From: Bacteroidales bacterium | Lineage (GTDB): Bacteria > Bacteroidota > Bacteroidia > Bacteroidales > UBA932 | Length of the DNA stretch: 63,007 nucleotides | NCBI GenBank assembly: GCA_017992915.1 | Contig: JAGONS010000001.1 | Location: 1 to 63,007 of the forward strand | Reading direction: 5' to 3' | Part shown: positions 2,940 to 63,007 of the stretch, piece by piece | How positions within the stretch are numbered: position 1 is the first letter of the stretch | Layout of the letters: each line of letters opens with the position of its first letter | Position numbers and translations under genes: made by a program | The notes under the pieces: generated by a model | Database searches by the model: none | What the model was told of the DNA's origin: nothing | The model's input: only the letters and a program-made list of their open reading frames with translations

Positions 2940-4255
2940 GAGATATCACTATGAAAGCGCTCCAGATGGCGCTGGATGCAGGAGCATCGGATGTACGGGT
3001 GGTTTTCGAGAAGGGAAACGGCGATATGGTCACAATCCTCAACGGAGAAATAGACCGACTATATCAAGCTGCCAGTTCCGCTCTCAATTTCCATATTTTT
3101 GCCGAGGGCAGGTACGGCTCATTTTCCACCAATCTGTTTGATGACGCAACGCTGAGGAAGTTTACCACCGATGCGGTCAATGCCACGCTCCTGATGACCC
3201 CCGATGAGTGCAGATCTCTGCCCGATAAGGGTATTTGCTACAATGGAGGCGGACCCGACCTCCGGCAGTATGATTCTTATATTGAGACACGTCCTTCTTC
3301 CGGAGGTGTTACTATTGCACACGAAGTAGCGGCCGAGATGCTCTCCGAAGAGAGGGTTGTTTCAGCAGAGAGCGAGTATGGCGACTTTGTGGAGGAGTAC
3401 TTCATCGCAGACAGTCAGGGATTTGAGGGATATCAACGCAGATCCGGCTTCTCGATTGGAGCTACCTGTTCAGTCGCCGGTAAAGGTGACGAAAAACACG
3501 AAAGAAGTTGGTATGAGGATGAGGTTTTCTTTGCCAATCTCCGATACCGTGGATGTGGTAAAAAAGCTCTGAAAATGGCAATTGAAAGCATCGGTCCGCT
3601 TAAAATGCCTTCCGGTTCTTATAATATGGTCGTGGACAGGACCATTGCTGCAAATCTGGTCATACCTATCACCGAAGCACTTAATGGCAGTGCCCTCCAC
3701 ACACGCAATTCCTTTCTGATGGACAAACTCGGGGAAAAGGTTTTTGGGGAAAATGTCTTCCTGAGAGATATGCCGCATACTGTCGGCAATGCATACTCCC
3801 GTCTCTTCAACATTGAAGGTATAGCAACAAAGGAGCGCGATATCATTTCAGGCGGTACTATTTGTAATTATTTCATTGACAACTATTACAGCCGCAAATT
3901 GGCACTTGAGGTAACTATCGGTAATCCTTCGGTTGTAATGATGCCGAAAAGCGAGCTTTTGTCAAATAATAAATTATCTTTGTCCGATATTTTGAAGAGA
4001 GCGGGCAGAGGGATTTATGTTACACAGTTTAACGGAGGTAACTGTAATGCCGCAACCGGAGACTTCTCCTACGGCATAGAGGGATTTCTGTTCGACAATG
4101 GAGAAATAGTCCATCCGATAAACGAAATGTTAATTTCCGGCAACCTGGTCACCCTGTGGAACAATCTAATAGCCGTTGCTGATGACCGGTTGGAGAGCCG
4201 CAAATGGCAGATACCTTCGCTATGCTTCTCGAACGTAAATTTTAACGGACTCTGA
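2936..4255 (+). CDS. pmbA: TldD partner protease subunit PmbA/TldE
   Basis: TldD/PmbA family without the HExxH motif. The start is placed at the ATGA overlap with the tldD stop (MRDITMKAL...). The listed 2870 start would lie inside tldD. Confidence 0.85.
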   Translation: MRDITMKALQMALDAGASDVRVVFEKGNGDMVTILNGEIDRLYQAASSALNFHIFAEGRYGSFSTNLFDDATLRKFTTDAVNATLLMTPDECRSLPDKGICYNGGGPDLRQYDSYIETRPSSGGVTIAHEVAAEMLSEERVVSAESEYGDFVEEYFIADSQGFEGYQRRSGFSIGATCSVAGKGDEKHERSWYEDEVFFANLRYRGCGKKALKMAIESIGPLKMPSGSYNMVVDRTIAANLVIPITEALNGSALHTRNSFLMDKLGEKVFGENVFLRDMPHTVGNAYSRLFNIEGIATKERDIISGGTICNYFIDNYYSRKLALEVTIGNPSVVMMPKSELLSNNKLSLSDILKRAGRGIYVTQFNGGNCNAATGDFSYGIEGFLFDNGEIVHPINEMLISGNLVTLWNNLIAVADDRLESRKWQIPSLCFSNVNFNGL

Positions 4256-5766: not shown

Positions 5767-6294
5767 ATGAAAATTGAAGACAACAAAGTAGTATCTCTGA
5801 TCTACAATCTGAAAGTCAATGGTGAGACCAAAGACTCCTGCGACAAGGAAAATCCGCTTGAATTCATAATGGGTATGGGCTATCTGCTCCCCAAATTTGA
5901 GGAATACCTTCTCGGCAAGGGTGTCGGTGACAAATTTGACTTCGTCCTTTCAGCTGCCGAAGGTTATGGCGAACTCAACCCCCAAGCCATCGTTGACCTT
6001 CCCAAAAACATATTCGAAGTAGATGGTGTACTCCAGGAAGAGCTTCTCGTACCGGGCAATTATATCCCCATGATGAATCAGATGGGTGGAGTAATCCCAG
6101 GTAAAGTTGTGGAAGTGAGTGAGGAAAGCGTAAAAATGGATTTCAACCACGAACTTGCGGGACAATCACTCCATTTCAAAGGCGAAATTACCGCAGTCAG
6201 GGAAGCTACAGATGAGGAGCTTACCAACGGACTTCACGGTGAGAGAGCCATGCATAACTGCGAAGGCAACTGCTCCTCTTGCGGAGGGTGCTAA
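5767..6294 (+). CDS. slyD: FKBP-type peptidyl-prolyl isomerase, SlyD-like, with a Cys-rich C-terminal tail
   Basis: N-terminus MKIEDNKVVSL.Y.L, an IF-domain insert, and FKBP motifs (LEF..G.G.LLP.FE..L.G). The tail is HNCEGNCSSCGGC. The start is taken at the internal ATG 5767. Confidence 0.8.
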   Translation: MKIEDNKVVSLIYNLKVNGETKDSCDKENPLEFIMGMGYLLPKFEEYLLGKGVGDKFDFVLSAAEGYGELNPQAIVDLPKNIFEVDGVLQEELLVPGNYIPMMNQMGGVIPGKVVEVSEESVKMDFNHELAGQSLHFKGEITAVREATDEELTNGLHGERAMHNCEGNCSSCGGC

Positions 6295-10400: not shown

Positions 10401-12010
10401 TCGACATATCAGGAACACTGGATAAACTGGCCCTTAACAGCACTAACGGACATTTTAACGATTTTAATTTCATACTGGACTACACAAAGGTACCATATAT
10501 CGTAAATGGGCCTTTCAGCATGAGCGAAAAAGGGGTGGTGTTTGAGAAAGCGATTGTCACTGACAGATTTGGTCATGAAGGGACCCTTACAGGAGGATTG
10601 CAATATGACCATTTCAAGGACATGCGTCTTAACGCCAGACTGAATGCCGAGCATCTACACGGACTCAATACCACAGCCGCAGATAACGATTCATACTACG
10701 GAAGGGCATTCGCCACCGGTACAGTCCGTTTAAGCGGACCATTCAGAAAACTTTTGCTGGATATGAATATCACCACCGGAAGAAACTCCACCATACATAT
10801 CCCGCTAGGTTCCTCATCAAGCAGCCATACCTCATTGCTTACCTTTGTGGACAACACTACAGTCAAGTCCATCTCAGCCTATGATTCGTTGCAGGTGATG
10901 AACACCGCCGCCGAAAAGAGAGGCGGTTACGAATTTGCCGTCAGAATGCGTGTCAATGCCACTCCTGATGCTGAAGTCCATCTCGAAATCAATAAAGCGC
11001 TGGGCGATGTCCTTAAGACTCGTGGATCCGGACAGTTGGTGATAAATGCCGCCACAGATCTGTTTGACATAAAAGGTAACTATAATATCGATGAAGGCAG
11101 TTACAAGTTCGTGATGCTGGGACTCGCCTCCCGTGACTTCATCATCAATCCGGGCGGCACTATCAATTTCACCGGAGATGTAATGAAATCTGACCTCAAC
11201 CTTGAGGCCATATACCGTACGAAAGCCTCCATAGGTACTCTGATAGCCGATACTACCTCCATCAGCACCAGGCGCACGGTTGACTGCGGCATCGGCATTA
11301 CCGGTAAACTCGCCAATCCCGAACTCAATTTCTCCATTGATATTCCCGATTTGGACCCCACCATCAAAGGACGTGTGGAAAGTGCCCTGAGTACCGAAGA
11401 TAAGCGTCTTAAACAGTTACTTACTCTGCTCCTTTCAGGCAGTTTCGTGCCTGACGAACAGTCAGGCATTGTCAACAACACCACCGTACTTTACTCCAAT
11501 GCCTCCGAGATCATGGCCAACCAGCTCAACAATGTCTTCCGCCAACTCAACATTCCTCTCGACCTTGGATTCAATTACCAACCGGGAGAGAAAGGACGCG
11601 ACATATTTGACGTGGCAGTCTCGACTCAGTTGTTCAACAACCGTGTCAACATAAACGGAAACATAGGTAACAGGCAATATATGACCTCCAATCAGAGTGA
11701 CCTGGTGGGTGATGTCGATGTGGAAATCAAAATCGATCGTACCGGCAGGGTACGCCTCACTCTATTTTCTCATTCGGCAGACCAATACAGTAATTACCTC
11801 GACCAGTTACAGCGCAACGGAATAGGTCTATCTTATCAGGAAGAATTTGATGACTTCAGAGAACTTTTCAGAAAGATATTCTGGAGTAAAAGACGCCGCG
11901 ATGAGTACGCCGCCCAACAGGCAAGAGTTCTTGAAACACGTCGAATGGATCCCCTGCAACGGATGCAGGAACAAAAATCAGAGCAAACGCAAGGAGCCAC
12001 CATCAGGTGA
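7430..12010 (+). CDS. tamB: Translocation and assembly module protein TamB (DUF490-type giant envelope protein)
   Basis: 1526 aa with an N-terminal TM anchor, a long beta-rich body, and a C-terminal DUF490-like region (NPELNFSIDIP, LLLSGSF). The start codon is uncertain; see findings. Confidence 0.8.
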   Translation: MVILLALVPTSLYIAIQMPAFQTFVGNKVSSVLSDKINGDISVGKISYALFNRLIVKNVLVTGFAGDTIVHTNKISVNLHTRSLISGEIKAGKIVIDGGEFNICQITPEESNLALLLKKNETRQGEEPAEAMQEESDKKSEGWPKPVNIDKIEIRDFTFRALDTFDITTYADPRTIDWSNIVLNEINLSARNLHMDEDVTVELDNLSFKEGNGLNINAFSGNIRLGDVLEYNGLDTITRKEIYIDDMLYDDGYSRLVTEYYSMRFDDFSDFSDYVRKVYMGLDLKEESFLDFQSLRSYTDELSYFTLKFYLSGETKGTVSNLITRSLKVQSKTKQTLLDFSAHLSGLPNAGETMASFDIKRCYTTTAEIADIVESVTDTPIDKKAIGSFAKGERIHFDGSLNGFFEDFVAFGELGSEDLGNFKVDIICRNERGAGYELIGFIKSRAFDLGRLMGNSLLGDFTCDATVSAVLGKESSIDIENISISELGFNNYNYSNILASGRLANNEFDGRVICSDPNLNFMFHGVFALAGKSSNSLYKFNLALGHADLHALNFDKREISRLKLLADADFTKTKSGDLYGDILIKNFVCSLGNDNYDVGNINLRSTSYKNDYKLQLKSSFARADYAGTAPISSFISDLLKLTAEHHLSHLFETKEKAEGLPDINENYSFTLQTFDMRPVCSFLMPGLYVEDRTNINVRMTSDDKLKININSPLLAYKHNYIRDLDLTVDNRDSMITTIARSGMLQSGNAKGYDAIIKALVKDNAIGLNLGFDNGKERATYADLNAKVSFPEPKENGLNILADFYPSNIVINGENWSLNPSSIGYREKDISVAGFGLSNGDQTIRFDGRLSANPKDTLLVTLNRFDASVANPIIGIPLDIKGFLTGKAEVFGIFSDNKGILLNIDGEKMSIAGDQIGDLDILTRWNEAAKCFDFLVNNRKNEFTPLHLAGSYFPNKKSVEGNLSLDKFSLVCLNPVVEGVISDVSGSISADIDISGTLDKLALNSTNGHFNDFNFILDYTKVPYIVNGPFSMSEKGVVFEKAIVTDRFGHEGTLTGGLQYDHFKDMRLNARLNAEHLHGLNTTAADNDSYYGRAFATGTVRLSGPFRKLLLDMNITTGRNSTIHIPLGSSSSSHTSLLTFVDNTTVKSISAYDSLQVMNTAAEKRGGYEFAVRMRVNATPDAEVHLEINKALGDVLKTRGSGQLVINAATDLFDIKGNYNIDEGSYKFVMLGLASRDFIINPGGTINFTGDVMKSDLNLEAIYRTKASIGTLIADTTSISTRRTVDCGIGITGKLANPELNFSIDIPDLDPTIKGRVESALSTEDKRLKQLLTLLLSGSFVPDEQSGIVNNTTVLYSNASEIMANQLNNVFRQLNIPLDLGFNYQPGEKGRDIFDVAVSTQLFNNRVNINGNIGNRQYMTSNQSDLVGDVDVEIKIDRTGRVRLTLFSHSADQYSNYLDQLQRNGIGLSYQEEFDDFRELFRKIFWSKRRRDEYAAQQARVLETRRMDPLQRMQEQKSEQTQGATIR

Positions 12011-15007: not shown

Positions 15008-15850
15008 ATGAAAAAACTAATACTGGCCACAGCCCTATTTCTGGCCACATTTACAATGAAAGCGCAGGAACTTATCATCATCAGTTCCGACCTTCTCAAA
15101 TGTGACGATTCCATTCTTGTATTCACCCCGGGACACTCTAGATTCTGCAATAAATCGGATGACAATACCACTGAAGCCATACCCACACTCTTTCTGCTTC
15201 ATGGCTGGTCGGGATGCTACCGCAATTGGGCAGACAAGTCCGACCTTCAGCAGGTCAGCAACCGTTTCGGGTTCAGGATCATCTGTCCGGACGGATTTTA
15301 CAACAGTTGGTATGCAGATAATGTAGACAAAGAGAAAATGCAGTGGAGAAGTTTCTTTGACCAAGAACTCTATCCGCAAATGGTGGAAAAATACAATCTC
15401 GACCCCGAAAAAACATTCATCACAGGCCTTTCTATGGGAGGCCTCGGTGCCATCAACATTTTTCTTGACGACATATCCAGATTCAGAGCTGCCGGTTCGA
15501 TGAGCGGTGTACTGGACATCTATCATGCCTCACCAAATCTGCTTGACAAGGAGCTTAGCCAAATTCTAGGCCCTTATACGCCTGAGAACCCGCTCTACGA
15601 TGCCAATAATCCAATCGGAAACCTCGACAAAGTGGCAGGATCAGGCAAACTGATGGTAATATCCTGCGGATATGAAGATTATTATGTGAAATCTACTCTG
15701 GACTTTTCGGCAAAATGCCGCGAAATGAAGATTCCCCACATTATGCTTCTCTCCCCGGGACGCCACTCCTGGATCTACTGGGACTACGCCCTTGTAGAAC
15801 ATCTGGAGTTTTTCAAGAAAATTCTGGATGGAGCGAATCTGGGATTCTGA
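15008..15850 (+). CDS. Secreted alpha/beta-hydrolase esterase (esterase D / putative esterase family)
   Basis: Signal peptide, LLHGW oxyanion region and nucleophile elbow GLSMGG. Confidence 0.75.
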   Translation: MKKLILATALFLATFTMKAQELIIISSDLLKCDDSILVFTPGHSRFCNKSDDNTTEAIPTLFLLHGWSGCYRNWADKSDLQQVSNRFGFRIICPDGFYNSWYADNVDKEKMQWRSFFDQELYPQMVEKYNLDPEKTFITGLSMGGLGAINIFLDDISRFRAAGSMSGVLDIYHASPNLLDKELSQILGPYTPENPLYDANNPIGNLDKVAGSGKLMVISCGYEDYYVKSTLDFSAKCREMKIPHIMLLSPGRHSWIYWDYALVEHLEFFKKILDGANLGF

Positions 15851-15939
15851 GGTGCGAAATACGAGGTATGTGTTGCGAGGTTGCTAAACTCAGTACTTCC
15901 TCTCAACCCGTAACACATAGCACGCAGCCCGAACCACCC

Positions 15940-16009
15940 CGTAACACGTAACACGTAATACGTAACACTACTCACTCCCCACTACACACTACATACTCGA
16001 AACTCAGAA
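15940..16009 (-). repeat. Ten in-phase degenerate heptamers (TNNNNAG / TNTTACG) starting at the TAG stop of the downstream-facing gene
   Basis: The minus strand reads TAG|TTCTGAG|TTTCGAG|TATGTAG|TGTGTAG|TGGGGAG|TGAGTAG|TGTTACG|TATTACG|TGTTACG|TGTTACG. A further TGTTACG copy lies at 15909-15915. Confidence 0.9.
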
Positions 16010-17269
16010 CTACTTAATAGACATGTCTCTAATCTCCTCTGCATCATAAACACCCTTGTCGAGCTTCACCTTGATCTCGGCGAATGCATTGAGAGTATAC
16101 TCCACATCCTCGAGTGAATGGACTGCAGTGGGAATGATACGATACATTATGATGCCCTGAGGCACCACGGGATATGTAACTGTAGAGCAGAAAATCTTAT
16201 AATTTTTCCTGAGGTCAATCACTATATTTGTGGCCTGCGCCAAATTACCATCCATAAATACAGGTGTAACACATGCCTCGGCAGGTCCAATATCGAAACC
16301 TCTCTTGCGAAGCCCCTCCTGAAGAGCTCTTGTAACAACCCATAGTTTTTCACGCAGACGTGCGCCTTCTTTACCGCGGATGATTTCGAGACGTTTGAGA
16401 GCACCCTCTACGATAGGCATGGGAAGTGCCTTTGCATATATCTGTGAACGCAAATTATATCTGAGGTAATTAATGATGGCTCTGGGACCGGCTACAAATC
16501 CGCCGATGGTAGCCATAGACTTTGCATATGTACCAATATAGAGGTCAATTTCGTCCATAACTCCAAAATGCTCGGAAGTACCACGGCCTTCCTTGCCCAT
16601 AACACCGAAACCGTGTGCATCATCGATGAGAATGCGGAAATTGTACTTCTTTTTAAGATCAACAATATCTTTAAGAATACCGAGAGCGCCGGTCATACCG
16701 TAAACGCCTTCTGTGAGCAGGAGAACTCCTCCCCCTCTGGCCTTTGCCTCAGCGCAAGCTCTTTTAATGATCCTTTCGCAATCGGCAATATCATTGTGAC
16801 GATATTTATATTTGGTGCCGAGATGAAGACGGATTCCATCGAGCAGACACGCATGACATTCGTTGTCATACACTACCACGTCATGGCGACACAGAAGTGC
16901 ATCAATAGTAGATACAATCCCCTGGTAACCGAAGTTGAAAAGGAAACAATCCTCTTTTTTCTCGAAATCGGCAAGCTCCCTTTCGAGTCTTTCGTGGAGA
17001 GCGGTATGTCCGGTAAGCATTCTGGAGCCCATAGGATAAGCCATACCCCATTTTGCGGCTCCTTCTGCATCTGCTTTGCGTATCTCAGGATGATTGGCAA
17101 GACCAAGATAGTTGTTTATACTCCAACATAGGACTTCTTCGCCCTGGAAAAACATCCTGGGACCAATTTCACCCTCAAGTTTGGGAAACATAAAGTAACC
17201 GAAAGCTTTATCACGATATTGGCCCAAAGGACCGCCTGAGTCTTTGCTTAATCTTTCAAAAATGTCCAT
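16010..17269 (-). CDS. PLP-dependent alpha-oxoamine synthase family acyltransferase (SPT/KBL/BioF-like; possibly sphingolipid or sulfonolipid first-step enzyme)
   Basis: Class I/II aminotransferase fold. It has the DDAHG motif and a PLP-lysine context GTYAKS, typical of the AONS/SPT family; 419 aa. Confidence 0.75.
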   Translation of the reverse strand: MDIFERLSKDSGGPLGQYRDKAFGYFMFPKLEGEIGPRMFFQGEEVLCWSINNYLGLANHPEIRKADAEGAAKWGMAYPMGSRMLTGHTALHERLERELADFEKKEDCFLFNFGYQGIVSTIDALLCRHDVVVYDNECHACLLDGIRLHLGTKYKYRHNDIADCERIIKRACAEAKARGGGVLLLTEGVYGMTGALGILKDIVDLKKKYNFRILIDDAHGFGVMGKEGRGTSEHFGVMDEIDLYIGTYAKSMATIGGFVAGPRAIINYLRYNLRSQIYAKALPMPIVEGALKRLEIIRGKEGARLREKLWVVTRALQEGLRKRGFDIGPAEACVTPVFMDGNLAQATNIVIDLRKNYKIFCSTVTYPVVPQGIIMYRIIPTAVHSLEDVEYTLNAFAEIKVKLDKGVYDAEEIRDMSIK

Positions 17270-24939: not shown

Positions 24940-24993
24940 CTCAGAACTAGCTACTAGATAACTTACTCAGAACTCCATACTTTGGACTCGAAA
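24940..24993 (-). repeat. Degenerate heptamer array starting at a TAG stop codon (same family as 15940-16009 and 62891-63007)
   Basis: The minus strand reads TAG|TTTCGAG|TCCAAAG|TATGGAG|TTCTGAG|...|TAGCTAG|TTCTGAG. It shares the exact units TTTCGAG and TTCTGAG with the 16009 array. Confidence 0.7.
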
Positions 24994-27580: not shown

Positions 27581-28172
27581 GGCCAATATGCCGGTAGCCG
27601 AAAGCGAGCTGGACTACAAGAACCCCTACCAGTTACTGTGTGCAGTGATACTCTCTGCCCAGGCTACCGACAAGCGGGTCAATATGATCACCCCCGAACT
27701 CTTCGAACGCTTCCCCACACCCGAAGATATGGCCGCATCCAATGAGGAGGAGATATATCAGATCATACGCTCCATAACTTACCCTAACAGCAAAGCACGC
27801 CACCTGCTGGGGATGGCACGAATGCTGGTGAGTGACTTCGGATCCGTGGTCCCGGATAATGTAGATGAATTGCAGAAACTTCCCGGTGTAGGACGTAAGA
27901 CAGCCAATGTGATTGCTTCGATCGTCTACAATAAGCCGGTGATAGCTGTAGATACGCATGTATTCCGCACCGCACGCCGCCTTGGACTCTCATCAGGCAA
28001 CAATGTGCTTGAAGTTGAAAAGGATCTGACCGCCGGTTTTCCGGAACACCTTCGCGCAAAAGCGCATCACTGGCTGATACTCCATGGCCGTTATGTCTGC
28101 ACTGCGAGAAAACAAAAGTGCGAATCCTGTGGACTCGCACCTTTCTGTGACCATTTCAACCAGAACAATTGA
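27540..28172 (+). CDS. nth: Endonuclease III (DNA glycosylase/AP lyase)
   Basis: HhH-GPD motif LPGVGRKTANV, catalytic VDTHV, and the C-terminal 4Fe-4S cluster CTARKQKCESCGLAPFC. Confidence 0.9.
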   Translation: MNAKKYQQVIAWFEANMPVAESELDYKNPYQLLCAVILSAQATDKRVNMITPELFERFPTPEDMAASNEEEIYQIIRSITYPNSKARHLLGMARMLVSDFGSVVPDNVDELQKLPGVGRKTANVIASIVYNKPVIAVDTHVFRTARRLGLSSGNNVLEVEKDLTAGFPEHLRAKAHHWLILHGRYVCTARKQKCESCGLAPFCDHFNQNN

Positions 28173-28178
28173 TTCTGA

Positions 28179-28691
28179 TTAAAATCTCTTGGTAATACCT
28201 ATATAAGATCTGTAAGGAATATCAGGTCCGAGAAGTCTAAGGTTGTATTTACCATCCAAAAATAGGCTCCAGCCATTGCTGAAGTTGTACTCAATGCCTG
28301 CACCGAAGTCCATACCGACGTGGAAGTCAACATTCTTACCGAATCCTATGTTCACACCAATGATGGGATAAACATTTAGGCCGTCAATGAGATTGATCAG
28401 GTAGTGAAAACCCACATCGGCACCGAGATGGATGGAGTTATGATCATCTACTCTTTCAAAGAATAGATCGAATCCTGCCCTTCCTCTAAAGTTGTTTGCG
28501 TTAAAGTCACCATGGAGGCCGACTGTAGGACCCCAAAATGCGTAACCTATGTGTGCGCCCACTGCACCGAAAGTGGTGGAGACTTTATAAGTTTTCTGAT
28601 CTGATTCGGTTGCCTGATCCGAGTTGGTCTGGGCTGATAGTGATGAAACACCGATGAGTGCAACCGCCAACACTAGGATTAATTTCTTCAT
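28179..28691 (-). CDS. Small outer-membrane beta-barrel protein (OmpW/porin-family-like)
   Basis: Signal peptide ...SSLSAQ, glycine/aromatic beta-strand pattern and a C-terminal ...GITKRF. Confidence 0.55.
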   Translation of the reverse strand: MKKLILVLAVALIGVSSLSAQTNSDQATESDQKTYKVSTTFGAVGAHIGYAFWGPTVGLHGDFNANNFRGRAGFDLFFERVDDHNSIHLGADVGFHYLINLIDGLNVYPIIGVNIGFGKNVDFHVGMDFGAGIEYNFSNGWSLFLDGKYNLRLLGPDIPYRSYIGITKRF

Positions 28692-32237: not shown

Positions 32238-32789
32238 ATGGTAACAACATTGATTGTGATTGGCATCCTGGCCATTTTGATAATCTGGGTGATTTCCGTA
32301 CAACGGAATCTTATCAGCAAAGAAGAATTGTGCAAAAATGCAATGAGCCAGATAGGTGTCCAAATGTCGAGCCGCTGGGATGCACTTACGGCACTCGCGG
32401 AACTCATCAAATCCTATGACGAACACGAGTACAATTCACTCAAAGATGTAATTGCACAGCGCACAAGCATCACCGGCAGCAGTTCAGCAGCCGATGCCAA
32501 CATGCAGGAAACCATCCTTACAGATGCCATGAGACGTATAGCCGTGGTAGTTGAGCAGTACCCCAACCTCAAAGCCAATGAGATGTACGTCAAGACTATG
32601 GATAGCGTCAATTTGTATGAAAATCAGGTACGTATGAGCCGTATGGTATACAATGACAGCGTAACCAACTACAACCGTCTCATCCGTCAGATTCCCAGCA
32701 ATATCGTAGCTTCATTGTTCGGGTTCAAGTCCAAGGATTATCTCGAAGAAAATCCGGCCAAGACTGAAATGCCCTCAATGAAAAAGTAA
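32238..32789 (+). CDS. lemA: LemA family protein
   Basis: N-terminal TM helix followed by the NxL coiled region typical of LemA (QRNLISKEE.C.NA.SQI.VQ...R.D) and a YPNLKAN motif. Confidence 0.85.
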   Translation: MVTTLIVIGILAILIIWVISVQRNLISKEELCKNAMSQIGVQMSSRWDALTALAELIKSYDEHEYNSLKDVIAQRTSITGSSSAADANMQETILTDAMRRIAVVVEQYPNLKANEMYVKTMDSVNLYENQVRMSRMVYNDSVTNYNRLIRQIPSNIVASLFGFKSKDYLEENPAKTEMPSMKK

Positions 32790-34489
32790 TGAAACGTCTG
32801 TTGCTCACGTTTTTGACCGCGATTGCCGCTTTTACTGCGACAGCGGAAAATACCACCATTCGGAATATTGACATAACATATATTCTTACACCCGAAGGGC
32901 ACGCCAAAGTGACTGAAGTGTGGGATGTCAGTGCAAAAAACATCACCGAGTGGTATTTGGTCAAATATAATATGGACTCTGCCGTCTCAATTACAGACCT
33001 TGCGGTAACTGATGAGAATGGCCTCAACTTTATAAATGAAGGTGAATGGGATATAGACCGAAGCCTCAGCAAAAAGGCAGGTAAATGCGGTATTGTATAC
33101 AAAGGTGTTAATGATTACGAATTGTGCTGGGGTATCGGCTCCTATGGAGATCATATTTTCACCGTTAAGTATACTATCAACAACTTTGTATTGTCAATGG
33201 AGGATTATGATGCGCTTCATTTCCAATTCATCTCCCCGGACCTCTCTTCCGCTCCAGAACACGCGAAAGTGACTGTCAGATATCAGGATGACCTCTACCA
33301 GCTGGATACCTCCAACACTCTGATTTGGGGTTTTGGATATGAAGGCACCTGCGAATTCATAGATGGTACCATTGTAGCTAAATCAGATGCTCCTTTTAAG
33401 AAAAACAGTTCGGTCATAATATTGGCGCGCTTTGAAAAGGAGATGTTCCATAATCTTGTCAACCTAGACAACCGTTTGTTTGAAGAGCGCCATGCGCTGG
33501 CGATGGAGGGCAGCCACTTTGATGGAGAGCCTTCGGAATATTCATACGAAGATTTTGAAGCTAAAGATTCCATTATTCCGATTCTATGGACTCTGGGTAT
33601 CATACTGGCCGGTGTAGGTATAGGCAAACAGAGCAAGAAGTATAAAAATGTCTCCACCTTCGGGGTAAAAAAACTCAAAGATATCGACTGGTGCAGAGAA
33701 ATTCCGTACAATGGAAACTTGCTCGCAACCAATTTTGTTATTACAAAAGCCCCTTCCCTGTTTAAGACACGCAATAGTTATGCTATTGCGTCAGCATATA
33801 TCCTTAGAATGATTCAGAAAAATATTCTGATTACAGGTAAAGACGAGAAGGGGAAAATTACCATCTCTTTCAACGACAAGGCAGATCTCGATAAGCTTGA
33901 ATCTCCCGAAAAGTCACTTTTCAACATGATGAAACAGGCCAGCGGAGCAAACCTGATCCTTGAAGACAAAGAGTTTTCGAGATGGGCCAAAAAAAATAAA
34001 AGTACGCTAATCAGCTGGACAAATTCCATAAGCACCAAGGGTGTCAAAGCTCTGGAAGCGGGAGACTTTTTCTCAAACAACAAGTTCACCCCTTCAGGTG
34101 TTCAGGCCAACAACAAAGTACTGGGATTTTTCAAGTATCTGCAGGATTTTACGCTTATCAATGAAAGAAGATCGGTAGAGGTACATTTGTGGCAGGATTA
34201 TCTGGTGTTTGCCACCCTTTTCGGCATTGCGGACAAGGTAGCTAAAGAGCTCAAGGATATCGACCCTATAGCCTTCGAGAAAGCTGTCAACTACGATTTC
34301 GACACATTCTCTACCATTCTCTACCAAACGAGAATGCTTTCCAATGCAATAACACTGAACTCATATGTGGCATCTTCTTCGGGTGGCTCATTCTCAGGAA
34401 CAAGCTCCTGGAGTGGCGGAGGAGGAGGTTCTTCCTTTGGCGGAGGCGGAGGATTTTCCGGTGGCGGTTCCGGCGGCGGAGGCAGATAA
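32789..34489 (+). CDS. DUF2207-domain membrane protein with a Gly-rich C-terminal tail
   Basis: Signal peptide, an extracytoplasmic domain, a mid-protein TM segment, and the characteristic tail GGGGGSSFGGGGGFSGGGSGGGGR. TAATG overlap with lemA. Confidence 0.8.
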   Translation: MKRLLLTFLTAIAAFTATAENTTIRNIDITYILTPEGHAKVTEVWDVSAKNITEWYLVKYNMDSAVSITDLAVTDENGLNFINEGEWDIDRSLSKKAGKCGIVYKGVNDYELCWGIGSYGDHIFTVKYTINNFVLSMEDYDALHFQFISPDLSSAPEHAKVTVRYQDDLYQLDTSNTLIWGFGYEGTCEFIDGTIVAKSDAPFKKNSSVIILARFEKEMFHNLVNLDNRLFEERHALAMEGSHFDGEPSEYSYEDFEAKDSIIPILWTLGIILAGVGIGKQSKKYKNVSTFGVKKLKDIDWCREIPYNGNLLATNFVITKAPSLFKTRNSYAIASAYILRMIQKNILITGKDEKGKITISFNDKADLDKLESPEKSLFNMMKQASGANLILEDKEFSRWAKKNKSTLISWTNSISTKGVKALEAGDFFSNNKFTPSGVQANNKVLGFFKYLQDFTLINERRSVEVHLWQDYLVFATLFGIADKVAKELKDIDPIAFEKAVNYDFDTFSTILYQTRMLSNAITLNSYVASSSGGSFSGTSSWSGGGGGSSFGGGGGFSGGGSGGGGR

Positions 34490-34545: not shown

Positions 34546-35505
34546 ATGAAGCGCAGAGGTATTTTTTTATTAGCCTTTATTATAATCACAATACAGGTCT
34601 CCGGACAAAACAGAAACTATACACGAGACACCATTCCGCAAAGGGACTCCCTCACCTACTTCGAGGAAGTGCTGGTAATAGATACTCTGGATACGGATGA
34701 CAAATTTACCAAAATCATCCTCTATGATGACTATACCTGGGCATATTTTGATCTGGGCAGACCGGTGATAGATACTGCGGAGTTCTTCGATTCCTGGGAA
34801 GGAACAGGCGTACATTCCTTCAGGGATGTAAAACTCTCGGACATACCCGAAGAAGTGGACCTGTTGCTGGTAGACTCCCTCAACGGATTCTGTGTCCCAT
34901 ATCAACAGAAAGTGGGATCCGGGTTCAAGTTCAGAAGGACAAGGGAACATAAAGGGGTTGACTTATCGCTCAAAACGGGAGACACCATCAGAGCCGCATT
35001 CGACGGTATGGTGCGTCTCTCTGAAGGTACAAGGAGAACCGGAGGTTACGGCAATCTGGTAGTAATTCGCCACCCAAACGGACTTGAAACCTACTACGCT
35101 CACCTATCCAAACGGATAGTGGATAGCGGAGAGGTAGTTAAAGCAGGTGAAGTGATAGGACTGGGAGGAAATACCGGACGCAGCAACGGTCCGCATCTTC
35201 ACTTCGAGACCAGATACAAAGGACATCCTTTTGATCCTCAACGTATCATAGACTTTGAGAAGGGAGTGCTCAGAGACTCGCTTTTTACCCTCAAAAAACA
35301 CTACTTCAGCATCTATTCACATTGGGGACAGACCGACGAGGAGTCGCTAGCTGCTTCACAGCGAATCATCCATACCATCAAATCGGGAGATACTCTCGGT
35401 GCACTCGCCATAAGATATGGCACCACCGTCAGGAGAATCTGTCAACTCAACGGCATAAGTTCCAACAAGATATTAAGAATTGGCCAGCGCCTGATAGTTA
35501 GGTAG
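34546..35505 (+). CDS. M23 family metallopeptidase with a C-terminal LysM domain
   Basis: HKGVDL (HxxxD) and GPHLHFE (HxH) motifs. The LysM region is HTIKSGDTLGALAIRYGTTVRRICQLNGI. Confidence 0.88.
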   Translation: MKRRGIFLLAFIIITIQVSGQNRNYTRDTIPQRDSLTYFEEVLVIDTLDTDDKFTKIILYDDYTWAYFDLGRPVIDTAEFFDSWEGTGVHSFRDVKLSDIPEEVDLLLVDSLNGFCVPYQQKVGSGFKFRRTREHKGVDLSLKTGDTIRAAFDGMVRLSEGTRRTGGYGNLVVIRHPNGLETYYAHLSKRIVDSGEVVKAGEVIGLGGNTGRSNGPHLHFETRYKGHPFDPQRIIDFEKGVLRDSLFTLKKHYFSIYSHWGQTDEESLAASQRIIHTIKSGDTLGALAIRYGTTVRRICQLNGISSNKILRIGQRLIVR

Positions 35506-59499: not shown

Positions 59500-59514
59500 T
59501 TATTGATTGATTTG

Positions 59515-61869
59515 ATGCCATCGATGGTCAGTAAAAGAGTTGTAATAGTGCTGCTGACGGTATTGTGTCTGGTCGCTTCCTCATATGGACGCGGCCGTTA
59601 TATTATTACTATCGGTCGACACACTATTCCCGCTTTTTGCGACACCATTCCTACTGTTCAGGATACCATTCCCGCTTTTCGCGACACTATTCCTACTGTT
59701 CAGTATACCATTCCCGCAATTCAGGATAGTGCCGCACTCTCTTCCGGAGTACCGGTCACCGATACAATCGCGGCCTCGTCTGACACTCTGACCTATCCAT
59801 ACGGCATTATGGAGATAGATACGGTGAATTTCTGGAAATGCATCGATACGCTCACCATCCCCTATCTCGACTCTACCTATACCGCTTACTTTGATTCTCT
59901 CGCACTTTACCTTCCGGATGCAAAAGATATAAAAAGGGCTGAACGAAGAATCGCCAGAGAGTACCGCGACAGCGTAAGGCTGGCCACACCCCGTATTTTG
60001 GACAGCTATATCATTCCCGATTCACTCCACTACCGGCGTATGCTCACCTGGACACACGATCAGGATTTCAACGACATTACTCTCATGGAAATAGATACCT
60101 CGTTCCAGTACAGGTTCAACGACTATCCCTTCCTGCGTAATGACGTCAATGGCACATATCTCGGAACAATTGGCTCTGCAATACAGTATCACAACTTTTT
60201 TAAACGGGAAAAAATGGATGTATTTCCGATGTTCGAACCCTATCTGGGCTACTTTTACACGCCGGAAAACATACCACAATACAACACCAAATCTGCATAT
60301 ACGGAACTTGCATATTGGGGGACACCCTTCGCCACTCAGCAACTGGAGGAGTCCTGTGTCAAAATCCTCACCACCCAGAATATCACGCCTGCACTCAACC
60401 TCTCCTTCCTATACAGACAGTACGGATCGAAAGGTATGCTCAAGGATGAAGCTACCAACAACCGTTCATACGCTATCGGAGTCAATTATCTCGGCAAAAA
60501 ATACCTTCTCAACGCCGGCTTCATCAGCCAAGCGGTAATCCGTTCCGAAAACGGCGGTCTGCAAGACTCATTCTGGATCAGGGACACCATCGTAGATGCC
60601 AAATCCATTGACGTCAATCTTCAGGATGCCGACAATCTGCTCAAACGAAGAACTGCATATCTAAGCCACACCTACACCATACCGATGAATTTCTTCCGTA
60701 AAAAGGATTCACTTTCGGTAGGTGAAGGTACCGTCGCATACATAGGACATAGCGCCGAGTACTCGAGATATGGAAAAGTTTACACTGACAACATCGCTGA
60801 AAACGACATTCACGGTCGTAATTTCTATTTAAACCAATTCCATCTCAACAATATATCCAGCAGAGACTCTCTGGGAACGGAACGGTTTGAAAATAAAGCC
60901 TTCATACGTCTGCAGCCGTTTGCCCACGATGCCGTTTTATCAAAAATCGACGCTGGAGTCGGCTACCAGATGCTCTCCATCCATAGTTTCGAACCCTCGC
61001 ACTATCTGAGCGGAACCAACAATGAGCGTCACAATAATCTCTACCTTTATGCCGGAGTTTCGGGACAATACCGAAAATACCTCTCCTGGAATGCTGATGG
61101 CAAATACACCTTTGCCGGATACAATCTCAATGACCTCGACATTGGAGGAAAAATCAGATTATCATTCTACCCTATAGAGGGTGGTATCCATCTTACAGGT
61201 CGATTGCGCACCACACTGACGGAACCTCACCCTTTTCATCAGAAAATTTATACAAACCACCACAAGTGGCACAATGACTTCACCAAAATCTCCGACAGCA
61301 GGGTCGAGGCTTCTCTCGATATTCCGAAATGGCATACACATGCCGGATTCGACTATGCTCTCGTGAGCGGGCTGATCTATTACGACACTCTCTCGATTAT
61401 AAGACAAGTGAACAAGCCTGTAAGCATCATTTCGGCATCTCTGGAGCAGAACATCCGACTTTGGATACTCCATCTGGACAATCGTGCTCTGTTCCAGATG
61501 GCATCTGATGGAGAGGCGCTCCCTTTGCCGAAACTTTCCCTCAATCTCAAATATTATATAGAATTCAACGTGGTCAAGGATGTGATGAGAATGCAAATAG
61601 GTCTCAACGCCCTCTTCCACACCAAATATTATGTTCAATCGTACAGCCCCGACCTCGGAGTATTCCATAACCAGCAAAAGGAACTCATAGGAGGCACCCC
61701 ATATTTCGATGCATTTGTCAATGTACAGTGGAAAAACGTCACTCTATTTGTCAAGTACACCAACACATTCAAAGGGTGGCCTCAGGCAGATTATTTTTCA
61801 GCCTACAATTACATAAGGCCTGAAAGGGGCTTCAAATTTGGCATCTGGTGGCCATTCTACATCAGATAA
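59515..61869 (+). CDS. Bacteroidetes 'putative porin' family outer-membrane protein with an N-terminal TIP heptad repeat
   Basis: Signal peptide and a large beta-rich body. The C-terminal ...FVKYTNTFKGWP...YNYIRPERGFKFGIWWPFY is typical of the putative-porin family. The start is ATG 59515 or 59524. Confidence 0.6.
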   Translation: MPSMVSKRVVIVLLTVLCLVASSYGRGRYIITIGRHTIPAFCDTIPTVQDTIPAFRDTIPTVQYTIPAIQDSAALSSGVPVTDTIAASSDTLTYPYGIMEIDTVNFWKCIDTLTIPYLDSTYTAYFDSLALYLPDAKDIKRAERRIAREYRDSVRLATPRILDSYIIPDSLHYRRMLTWTHDQDFNDITLMEIDTSFQYRFNDYPFLRNDVNGTYLGTIGSAIQYHNFFKREKMDVFPMFEPYLGYFYTPENIPQYNTKSAYTELAYWGTPFATQQLEESCVKILTTQNITPALNLSFLYRQYGSKGMLKDEATNNRSYAIGVNYLGKKYLLNAGFISQAVIRSENGGLQDSFWIRDTIVDAKSIDVNLQDADNLLKRRTAYLSHTYTIPMNFFRKKDSLSVGEGTVAYIGHSAEYSRYGKVYTDNIAENDIHGRNFYLNQFHLNNISSRDSLGTERFENKAFIRLQPFAHDAVLSKIDAGVGYQMLSIHSFEPSHYLSGTNNERHNNLYLYAGVSGQYRKYLSWNADGKYTFAGYNLNDLDIGGKIRLSFYPIEGGIHLTGRLRTTLTEPHPFHQKIYTNHHKWHNDFTKISDSRVEASLDIPKWHTHAGFDYALVSGLIYYDTLSIIRQVNKPVSIISASLEQNIRLWILHLDNRALFQMASDGEALPLPKLSLNLKYYIEFNVVKDVMRMQIGLNALFHTKYYVQSYSPDLGVFHNQQKELIGGTPYFDAFVNVQWKNVTLFVKYTNTFKGWPQADYFSAYNYIRPERGFKFGIWWPFYIR
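59620..59724 (+). repeat. Five tandem 21-nt coding repeats (HTIPAFC DTIPTVQ DTIPAFR DTIPTVQ YTIPAIQ)
   Basis: Read directly: five consecutive in-frame 21-nt units, with a 42-nt higher-order unit, inside the porin-family gene. Confidence 0.9.
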
Positions 61870-61873
61870 CAGC

Positions 61874-62890
61874 ATGACCAAAAAGGACATTTACTTCTTC
61901 GGGAAATGTTTGCTGGTACTGATAATAGTGATTACTATCAAACTGATGATTCCGGAGAACCGCGGAAAACGCAATACTTATCACATATATCTTAAGGACA
62001 CTCTTGTGTTCAGCATTATACCGGACTGCCAAAGCCGTCAGGGAGGATTCAATCGCGAATTGATTGAGAGATTTGCAGAGTACAATGGCTCTGAATCTCT
62101 CATAGTACCTTCTGTGGGTGGCGAACTGGACTGGAAATACCTTGTTGATGGGAAGTATGACATGCTGGTCTTCAGTATGAACGATTCAATTCCCGACCAA
62201 TATGCTTCAAAGGTGCTTGTAACACGTGAAACCGGCGGCAGGGATGCCTGTGCTGTAAAAGTCGGCAATAAACGGCTGCTCAACAGTTTCAATTTCTGGC
62301 TTTCCGACTTCAAGTCGGACGATACCTATAGGCAGATGGTCTTCAGGTTTTTCAGGTCATACCGTTTGAGTGCAATGCCGGAGGGATTTGACCATAAGAA
62401 TGCCATTTCCCCATACGATTACATTATCAAGAAATATAGCAGCTACATAAATGCAGACTGGAGGCTTATCAGCGCCATTATTTACGAAGAATCGCGTTTC
62501 ATCCACTCTTCGTCATCGGCAAAGAATGCACGTGGTCTGATGCAAATCAAAGAGTCCACCGCAGCCATTTACGGCGTGGAGGATATTCTAGATCCGGAAC
62601 TCAATATAAAAGCGGGAACGCTCCATTTCGACTATCTTTTCAATCTTTACCGAAAAGAAGGATTAGATTCTGCTAATGTGATCAAATTTGCTCTCGCATC
62701 CTACAATGCAGGTACCGGACGCATCAAGCAATGTCGCGAACACGCCGCATCAGTAGGGTTGGACCCAAATAACTGGGAAGAAGTGGTAAAGGGCTTCGAT
62801 TCAATGCCCGATTTCAAAGGAACACAGACGACAAGGTATGTGAGAAATGTCATAGACCTTTTCGAACGCTACAAACAAGTGGTTGAGTAG
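61874..62890 (+). CDS. Membrane-anchored lytic transglycosylase (SLT domain, MltF-like)
   Basis: N-terminal TM anchor and SLT catalytic motifs IIYEESRF, GLMQI and YNAG. The start is taken at MTKKDIYFF. Confidence 0.8.
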   Translation: MTKKDIYFFGKCLLVLIIVITIKLMIPENRGKRNTYHIYLKDTLVFSIIPDCQSRQGGFNRELIERFAEYNGSESLIVPSVGGELDWKYLVDGKYDMLVFSMNDSIPDQYASKVLVTRETGGRDACAVKVGNKRLLNSFNFWLSDFKSDDTYRQMVFRFFRSYRLSAMPEGFDHKNAISPYDYIIKKYSSYINADWRLISAIIYEESRFIHSSSSAKNARGLMQIKESTAAIYGVEDILDPELNIKAGTLHFDYLFNLYRKEGLDSANVIKFALASYNAGTGRIKQCREHAASVGLDPNNWEEVVKGFDSMPDFKGTQTTRYVRNVIDLFERYKQVVE

Positions 62891-63007
62891 TCTGTAGTGG
62901 GGAGTGTGTAGTCTGTAGTGGGGAGTGTGTAGTGGTGAGTGGGTAGTGGGGAGTGGGTAGTGGGGAGTGGGTAGTGGGGAGTGGGTAGTGGGGAGTGGGT
63001 AGTGGGG
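62891..63007 (+). repeat. Tandem heptamer array (TNNNNAG)n: (TCTGTAG TGGGGAG TGTGTAG)x2, TGGTGAG, then (TGGGTAG TGGGGAG)x4.5, running off the window
   Basis: Read directly. It is perfectly phased in 7-nt units from the base after the TAG stop at 62888-62890. Apart from two C bases it is C-free on this strand, with GGG/GGGG tracts every 7 nt. Confidence 0.95.

Follow-up and report, generated by a model that had tools for sequence, protein, structure and literature searches.

A heptanucleotide repeat array flush with the stop codon of an alpha-oxoamine synthase gene in a Bacteroidales genome

The window analyzed here is a stretch of 63,007 nt from a Bacteroidales bacterium (contig JAGONS010000001.1, assembly GCA_017992915.1). 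In this window, a gene for an aminotransferase of the alpha-oxoamine synthase (AOS) type converges with an esterase gene, and the spacer between them carries a tandem array of 7-nt units (heptamers), here called the AOS array. An earlier note, made from the letters alone, had described the array at 15895-16009 and had proposed that it could act on both converging transcripts, on one of them as a C-rich Rho-utilization (rut) site. The array was found to be a genuine heptanucleotide tandem repeat which gains and loses whole units between species. The features of the locus are as follows.

16010-17269, minus strand: class I/II aminotransferase of AOS type, 419 aa (Pfam PF00155, E 2e-38)
16010-16016, minus strand: last codon and TAG stop of the AOS gene (TAAGTAG), in the unit frame of the array
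15968-16009, minus strand: proximal block of six TNNNKAG heptamers (TTCTGAG TTTCGAG TATGTAG TGTGTAG TGGGGAG TGAGTAG), starting at the first base after the AOS stop
15940-15967, minus strand: distal block of four TRTTACG heptamers (TGTTACG TATTACG TGTTACG TGTTACG)
15927-15939, minus strand: junction motif closing the array, GGGTGGTTCGGGC, which reads GGGGTGGTTCGGG together with the last G of the array
15904-15919, minus strand: AOS-side hairpin arm of TGTTACG-like units, TATGTGTTACGGGTTG on the minus strand
15851-15885, plus strand: short sense-strand heptamer array after the TGA of the esterase (GGTGCGA AATACGA GGTATGT GTTGCGA GGTTGCT), the inner part of which (15867-15883) is the esterase-side hairpin arm
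15008-15850, plus strand: esterase, 280 aa, convergent to AOS (Pfam PF00756, E 3e-16)

The array and hairpin between the AOS and esterase genes

On the minus strand the AOS gene ends in ...ATT AAG TAG and the array begins at the next base. Re-reading from the TAG (16010-16012) returned ten gapless heptamers from 16009 down to 15940, exactly the units quoted in the earlier note, and the last codon with the stop fell into their frame as had been stated. The span 15895-16009 given there stands for the ten units at 15940-16009, but not for 15895-15939, which holds no in-phase heptamers and contains GGGGTGGTTCGGG followed by one hairpin arm. Tandem Repeats Finder reported two period-7 rows (15940-15968 and 15965-15997). 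The highest period-7 self-identity was 0.78, while 100 shuffles reached no more than 0.59. The T....[AC]G run on the minus strand counted 11 units including the stop unit, and no run longer than 4 arose in 200 shuffles. The array mixes at least eight different units, and their common frame is only T....[A/C]G. GTAG is present in four of the ten units and in five with the stop-codon unit TAAGTAG. Outside the arrays, these units are not over-represented in the window. The whole array falls between the stop codons of AOS and of the esterase (15848-15850) and is thus non-coding. A scan of the Rfam 15 covariance models gave a single match at chance level (18 bits against a gathering score of 40). 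Tandem units of 5-11 nt define the long simple sequence repeats (LSSR; Mrazek et al. 2007, as summarized in PMC4679880). The AOS array, with tandem repetition beyond chance, non-coding location and whole-unit copy changes among related genomes, belongs to this known and functionally unexplained class of bacterial heptamer repeats as a Bacteroidales variant.

The inner units of the AOS-side and esterase-side arrays pair with each other (15867-15883 with 15904-15919) and form the sole stable hairpin of the spacer. Its folding energy is -23.1 kcal/mol on the plus strand (z -3.5 against shuffles) and -20.6 kcal/mol on the minus strand. It possesses a 20-nt loop and is followed by no T-run, so it does not have the form of an intrinsic terminator. 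No terminator-like site was found on either strand in 15600-16300, and no canonical intrinsic terminator follows the esterase there. AOS and esterase are the only convergent pair of the window with a long spacer. The other convergent pairs overlap by 4-33 nt (6291-6294, 11978-12010, 35473-35505) or are placed 6 nt apart (28172-28179).

Assembled RNA from metatranscriptomes covers the array. A contig of run X26 spans 15796-16438 while the body of the esterase gene has no coverage in it, and contigs of runs X27, X28 and X32 reach from 15828 to 16040 or 16099. The contigs continuous with AOS extend at least 180-214 nt past the AOS stop. The end at 15828, common to three RNA runs, was considered as an RNA 3' end and rejected; it is probably a branch of the assembly graph at a strain variant, because a contig of X27 overlaps it by 30 nt and X26 reads to 15796. 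The earlier note had named read-through of both transcripts, with no 3' ends in this interval, as evidence against the element. The RNA contigs cross the whole interval with no internal end, which is such read-through for at least one of the two transcripts. As far as unstranded contigs tell, the array is part of the AOS 3' untranslated region (UTR) and not the place where the AOS transcript ends.

Turnover among relatives and other arrays of the family

AOS orthologues were collected from 80 loci. Even relatives with as little as 50% esterase identity keep the AOS and esterase genes convergent. The nearest genomes belong to uncultured Bacteroidales of anaerobic digesters, and the exact window sequence is present in DNA runs from digesters and activated sludge; the array version of the window was unchanged in four metagenomes from 2017-2025. 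In seven sister species (L001-L006 and L019, with 82-91% AOS nucleotide identity) the array starts directly after AAG TAG, and the spacer of the array-bearing species measures 75-739 nt. Relatives with AOS protein identity of 84% or less showed no heptamers in their AOS/esterase spacer, which is about 40-50 nt long. The spacer of L013 holds a strong hairpin with flanking A and T runs (z -5.7). The distal block appears as NGTTRCG units in all seven close relatives. L004 and L006 possess only four NGTTRCG units and the TNNNKAG block is missing as a whole (63 nt, nine units), while L019 carries more than 40 units organized as a 46-nt higher-order repeat. The indels in the spacer alignment were 7, 7, 63 and about 38 nt; sister species differ in their unit counts, the indels being scored as multiples of 7. 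The AOS array thus gains and loses whole units between species with its start kept at the AOS stop. An absence of period-7 structure from close relatives, named in the earlier note as evidence against the element, was not observed, as all seven sister species carry an array at the site.

The junction motif after the array is kept in the window, L002-L005 and L019, while L001 has GGGTTGGTTCGGG. A related string, GGGGTTCGGG, sits after the array of another gene in L097, which codes for an SLT-domain protein. In L087 (315-330), a 7-nt duplication (ATTAAGT) within the last AOS codons changes the C-terminus from ...SIK* to ...SIKY*; the spacer is otherwise close to that of L003 with few substitutions. 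This case suggests that slippage of heptamers can extend into the last codons of a gene. In L004 (4340-4495), a heptamer run on the other strand (AGCCAAC AGCCAAT GGCTAAC GGCCAAT) lies downstream of the short AOS array, along with a long perfect inverted repeat, AAAATGACACGTGCC ... GGCACGTGTCATTTT.

Base substitution in the array was compared with that at four-fold degenerate sites of AOS, of which 30-33% differ between the window and L001-L003. Between the window and L003, with ten units each, the array with its closing motif differs at 9 of 82 positions and the four-fold sites at 61 of 185 (Fisher p 1e-4); the remaining spacer differs at 9 of 77 (p 4e-4 against the same four-fold sites). Between L001 and L002 the array differs at 3 of 86 positions and the four-fold sites at 26 of 188 (p 0.01). 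The window, L001 and L003 share the 22-nt core AGTGTGTAGTGGGGAGTGAGTA without a difference. Base substitution in the array is thus about three times slower than at four-fold sites, for which function or gene conversion could each account.

The esterase side also carries arrays. In L003 and L006, as in the window, a short array made of G[GA]T[GA]CG[AG]-like units comes after the esterase stop. In L001, L005 and L019 the sense-strand array of the esterase reads TAG TTTTGAG TTAGGAG TTATGAG TTTCGAG and continues in GTGCG-type units; that of L002 is shorter. In these four species a strong hairpin, the strongest of the spacer, lies between the esterase and AOS arrays (z -7.6 in L001 and -7.8 in L019). 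A T-run follows it on the AOS-sense strand, and its tail on the esterase-sense strand is weak. The terminator pattern scan called the hairpin of L001 and called none in L007 or L019; the L019 hairpin is supported by folding.

Two further arrays of the window belong to the same family.

62884-63007, plus strand: strong member, beginning in the TAG stop of an SLT-domain gene (61838-62890) and continuing to the end of the window
24966-24993, minus strand: weak member of four units (TTTCGAG TCCAAAG TATGGAG TTCTGAG), directly after the TAG of a radical-SAM gene

The T....[AC]G run of the SLT array at 62884-63002 comprises 17 units, against at most 4 in 200 shuffles. TGTGTAG and TGGGGAG of the AOS array recur in the SLT array, and TTCTGAG and TTTCGAG in the radical-SAM array on the minus strand, so that the sharing of units pointed out earlier is confirmed; the AOS array is, as stated there, the second of a family of heptamer arrays and is in phase with its stop codon. 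The SLT array turns into perfect (TGGGTAG TGGGGAG)n up to the last base of the window; since it extends to that base, the contig probably broke inside the repeat. The SLT arrays of L088, L097 and L099 start from the same stop and differ greatly in content. The radical-SAM array sits between co-directional genes and, like the AOS array, lies inside RNA contigs, which join both of its neighboring genes.

For every array placed in the lineage of the window, the G/T-rich strand is the sense strand of the preceding gene. This holds for the arrays of AOS, of the esterase, of the SLT gene (window, L088, L097, L099) and of its convergent partner in L088, for the convergent pair of L094, for the radical-SAM gene and for a 359-aa open reading frame (ORF) of L292. 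The orientation is tied to the gene and not to the direction of replication, because convergent pairs hold two opposite arrays within 200 nt.

Several groups of uncultured Bacteroidales are rich in period-7 arrays, whose units are of many types, and the patterns (KAGTNNN)x5 and KAG TTCTGAG TTYYGAG TNNNKAG were each found at more than 120 loci over many phyla. Arrays of TTCTGAG/TTYYGAG were not accepted as an element conserved across phyla, as there are about 2,300 heptamer classes and each is expected many times in the 596 Gb searched. First orientation counts across phyla favored the sense strand by 48 to 11 and 33 to 4. They were rejected as an artefact of ORF calling, because stops occur in all frames of the KAG strand, so that shadow ORFs terminate at the array, and are missing from the other strand. 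When the longest ORF on each side was taken as the gene, the counts became 39 against 17 (p 0.005) and 22 against 14 (p 0.24). A bias to a G+T-rich sense strand or to the stop codon near AOS in distant relatives was likewise not retained; the counts (12 against 5 and 6 against 4) were not significant and many of the arrays are orthologous.

Three other loci of the window were noted. Tandem repeats of 21 and 42 nt with up to 94% matches occur at 59614-59730 in a 788-aa ORF (59503-61869), which must therefore contain a repeated peptide of 7 or 14 residues. GGAGGA-rich tandem repeats of 24 and 12 nt lie at 34413-34479, the 3' end of ORF 32789-34489, among the stretches with most G over C skew. 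The ORF at 726-1316 (196 aa) has matches to the Zeta-toxin and AAA_33 kinase families (E 5e-10).

Possible role of the array

With moderate confidence we read the AOS array as an LSSR-type heptamer array in the AOS 3' UTR which turns over by slippage and is kept, together with the hairpin, as a module acting at the 3' end at the RNA level. Its units would be gained and lost by slipped-strand mispairing during replication. Heptamer arrays would be tolerated only past the stop codon, because a slip of 7 nt within a gene shifts the reading frame. In the RNA, the module may consist of a single-stranded G/U-rich stretch followed by the hairpin formed from the convergent arrays. It may influence the end position or the lifetime of the transcript instead of loading Rho, and the C-rich opposite strand would be a by-product of the orientation of the array.

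Several observations weigh against this reading. The spacer hairpin of the window has no U-tract and is only moderately above shuffles on the AOS strand (z -1.8). The RNA contigs are unstranded and may contain some DNA, and of the raw-read RNA runs X21-X23 no read mapped. The slow substitution could have its cause in gene conversion between copies of the array or in a low local mutation rate, and not in function. A fixed order of unit types, TNNNKAG then NGTTRCG then GGGTGGTTCGGG, was considered and given up; it is found behind AOS, the SLT gene (L097) and the esterase (L001, L019) and is reversed or absent elsewhere, for example in L242 and L290. Across phyla, the sense preference is only about 2:1 after removal of the artefact.

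One rival holds that the array is a neutral by-product, slippage junk which lies in an unselected spacer and serves neither transcript. Each sister species has its own number and set of units, the indels being whole units, and the spacer grew from about 40-50 nt to 75-739 nt. Among the long simple repeats of many bacteria, heptamers are the most frequent, and they are ascribed to polymerase slippage (PMC4679880, citing Mrazek 2007). We nevertheless consider the neutral explanation unlikely, as array substitutions are about three times rarer than at four-fold sites, the 22-nt core is the same in three species which differ at 30% of those sites, identical units recur at unlinked loci, and the sense orientation is consistent in this lineage.

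The Rho loading site of the earlier note is judged improbable. It holds that the C-rich plus strand ends the esterase transcripts, so that one piece of DNA serves both genes. The rut sites of Escherichia coli Rho are about 80 nt of C-rich, G-poor, unstructured and untranslated RNA. On the plus strand, 15914-15993 contains 33 C and 8 G and is the second most C/G-skewed 80-nt stretch of the 63 kb, the most skewed one being the other strong array. It is practically unstructured (-4.6 kcal/mol, z -0.24), is not translated on the esterase strand, and follows an esterase which in this strain has no canonical intrinsic terminator. The distance of 45-160 nt from the esterase stop was also given correctly, as that stop ends at 15850. 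In composition the proposal therefore stands, but the service to both converging transcripts does not. The orientation of the arrays tracks the preceding gene, also at the co-directional pair where no converging transcript exists. In L001, L002, L005 and L019 the relation to the esterase is not kept, since the esterase has its own sense array there and this array and the hairpin intervene; the strongest hairpin precedes the AOS array and its T-run lies on the AOS-sense strand. L004 and L006 keep the gene pair without the entire TNNNKAG block, and the other convergent pairs of the window overlap or abut with no spacer. The C-rich plus strand is the mirror of a G/T-rich array oriented to AOS. 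A selected function as a Rho site for the esterase is unsupported and unlikely. Incidental loading of Rho on read-through RNA of the esterase in this strain is possible.

A still less probable origin is a GTAG-tagged repetitive extragenic palindrome (REP), with the array as relic or product of a mobile palindrome moved by a transposase of the REP-associated tyrosine transposase (RAYT) type and not of local slippage. REPs with the GTAG tag are located near gene 3' ends, frequently provide the TAG stop and may also lie within genes (PMC3733652). The TNNNKAG block is present or absent as a whole, and the 21-nt run TGTGTAG TGGGGAG TGTGTAG occurs identically in a palindromic element of about 84 nt which lies in frame in housekeeping genes of rumen Bacteroidales. 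Short shared strings are however weak evidence, since any heptamer class is expected many times in 596 Gb. The AOS array is a direct repeat and not a palindrome; it folds no better than its shuffles (z -1.3) and shows no palindromic body of the REP kind. Its unit-by-unit variation fits slippage. Ten small ORFs of the window were compared with transposase families and none matched.

The rumen element itself was observed recurrently in metagenome-assembled genomes of rumen Bacteroidales (L081-L085, L089-L091, L093, L098, L101-L103), for example at L083:4262-4350 and L102:186-280. It is composed of the same heptamers, AG TGTGTAG TGGGGAG TGTGTAG TGGATAG, a spacer of about 15 nt and CTACCCA CTACCCA CTATCCA CTA. 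In its host genes it adds a peptide like VCSGECVVDSTRGQALPTTHYPLPT (29 aa), often between Pfam domains. The hosts include NqrA, RecG, PIF1 helicase, a GT4 glycosyltransferase, an amidohydrolase, the fumarate reductase/succinate dehydrogenase flavoprotein, a tRNA-ligase anticodon domain and MnmA. The element looks like a GTAG-tagged REP or an analogue of the Rickettsia palindromic elements; GTAG repeats were not reported for Bacteroidetes in the REP survey (PMC3733652).

A G-quadruplex or R-loop element, in which the G-rich sense strand folds as DNA or RNA and pauses or ends transcription, can practically be set aside: although the sister array contains a textbook quadruplex motif at 62941-62993 and quadruplexes are formed in vitro by the G-rich heptamers of Xanthomonas and Nostoc (PMC4692102), a pattern scan for four tracts of at least three G with loops of 1-7 nt found none in 15851-16009, the canonical motifs of the window are confined to the SLT array, and RNA contigs read through the AOS array.

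A wider proposal is speculative and is put forward as an unlikely extension of the 3'-end module reading. The arrays would belong to a constrained, gene-oriented family of 3'-end modules of uncultured Bacteroidales whose GTAG heptamers are read or made by a sequence-specific factor, for instance a protein binding single-strand RNA or a RAYT-like transposase of single-strand DNA. If true, the family would connect 3'-end formation with simple heptamer repeats and with mobile palindromes of the REP kind, in a phylum without GTAG repeats in the REP survey (PMC3733652).

Comparison with known repeats

The literature consulted on these units and on heptamer repeats in Bacteroidetes held no earlier report of this unit family or of these Bacteroidales. 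The short tandemly repeated repetitive (STRR) heptamers of heterocystous cyanobacteria have consensus units such as CCCCAGT. They differ from the AOS array in consensus units and host group. Compared with rut sites, the RNA of the esterase strand is alike in length, C-richness and structure, but in composition it mirrors an element that is oriented to AOS. A Rho-like composition can thus be the mirror image of another element, which calls for caution where rut sites are predicted from composition only.

GTAG-tagged REPs and Rickettsia palindromic elements were described by Di Nocera et al. 2013 (PMC3733652). The AOS array resembles the former in its GTAG motif, in its place near the 3' ends of unidirectional or convergent genes, in the TAG supplied by the element and in the pairing of convergent copies into larger hairpins. 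REPs are however palindromes of 20-40 bp, while the AOS array is a 7-nt direct repeat of which only the innermost units enter a hairpin. TAACTGA direct repeats are found in Beggiatoaceae, cyanobacteria and a few Bacteroidetes, and single-strand RNA-binding proteins were proposed as their readers (MacGregor 2015, PMC4679880). They are likewise intergenic heptamer arrays flush with gene boundaries and with stops in all frames of one strand. They consist of a single unit and lie mainly just upstream of start codons, whereas the AOS array lies just downstream of a stop. In more distant, Cryptobacteroides/Limimorpha-like loci (L039, L043, L056, L060 and L079, at about 2950-3000), the AOS start codon is directly preceded by an array that reads TTCTAAA/TTCTAAC on the sense strand of AOS and resembles the TAACTGA repeats of Beggiatoaceae.

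The heptameric repeats GGGAATC of Xanthomonas and GGGGA(C/T)T of Nostoc (Rehm et al. 2015, PMC4692102) are mostly intergenic, rare between divergent genes, and overlap stop codons. They vary among close relatives with constant flanking genes and are mostly transcribed, and their function is not established (PMC4692102). The AOS array shares with them the tandem 7-nt units, the mostly intergenic position, the variation between relatives and the transcription; it begins directly 3' of a stop and its G-rich strand is the sense strand. The sense preference of about 2:1 at gene 3' ends across phyla agrees with that of the GGGNATC repeats of Xanthomonas and Nostoc (PMC4692102). The Xanthomonas and Nostoc repeats consist of one unit, prefer four copies and form quadruplexes, while the AOS array mixes its units, has no quadruplex motif and belongs to Bacteroidales. 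Like other LSSR, the AOS array is heptanucleotide, non-coding, patchy among lineages and ascribed to polymerase slippage.

For years, heptamer repeats that abut stop codons have been known from Xanthomonas, cyanobacteria and giant sulfur bacteria and have lacked an explanation. The locus described here offers natural variants, in species with 4, 10, 11 and more than 40 units. The lineage of the AOS array combines mixed units in one frame, gene orientation, transcription and an evolution about three times slower than at neutral sites in spite of unit turnover, and this combination argues against the class being mere slippage debris.

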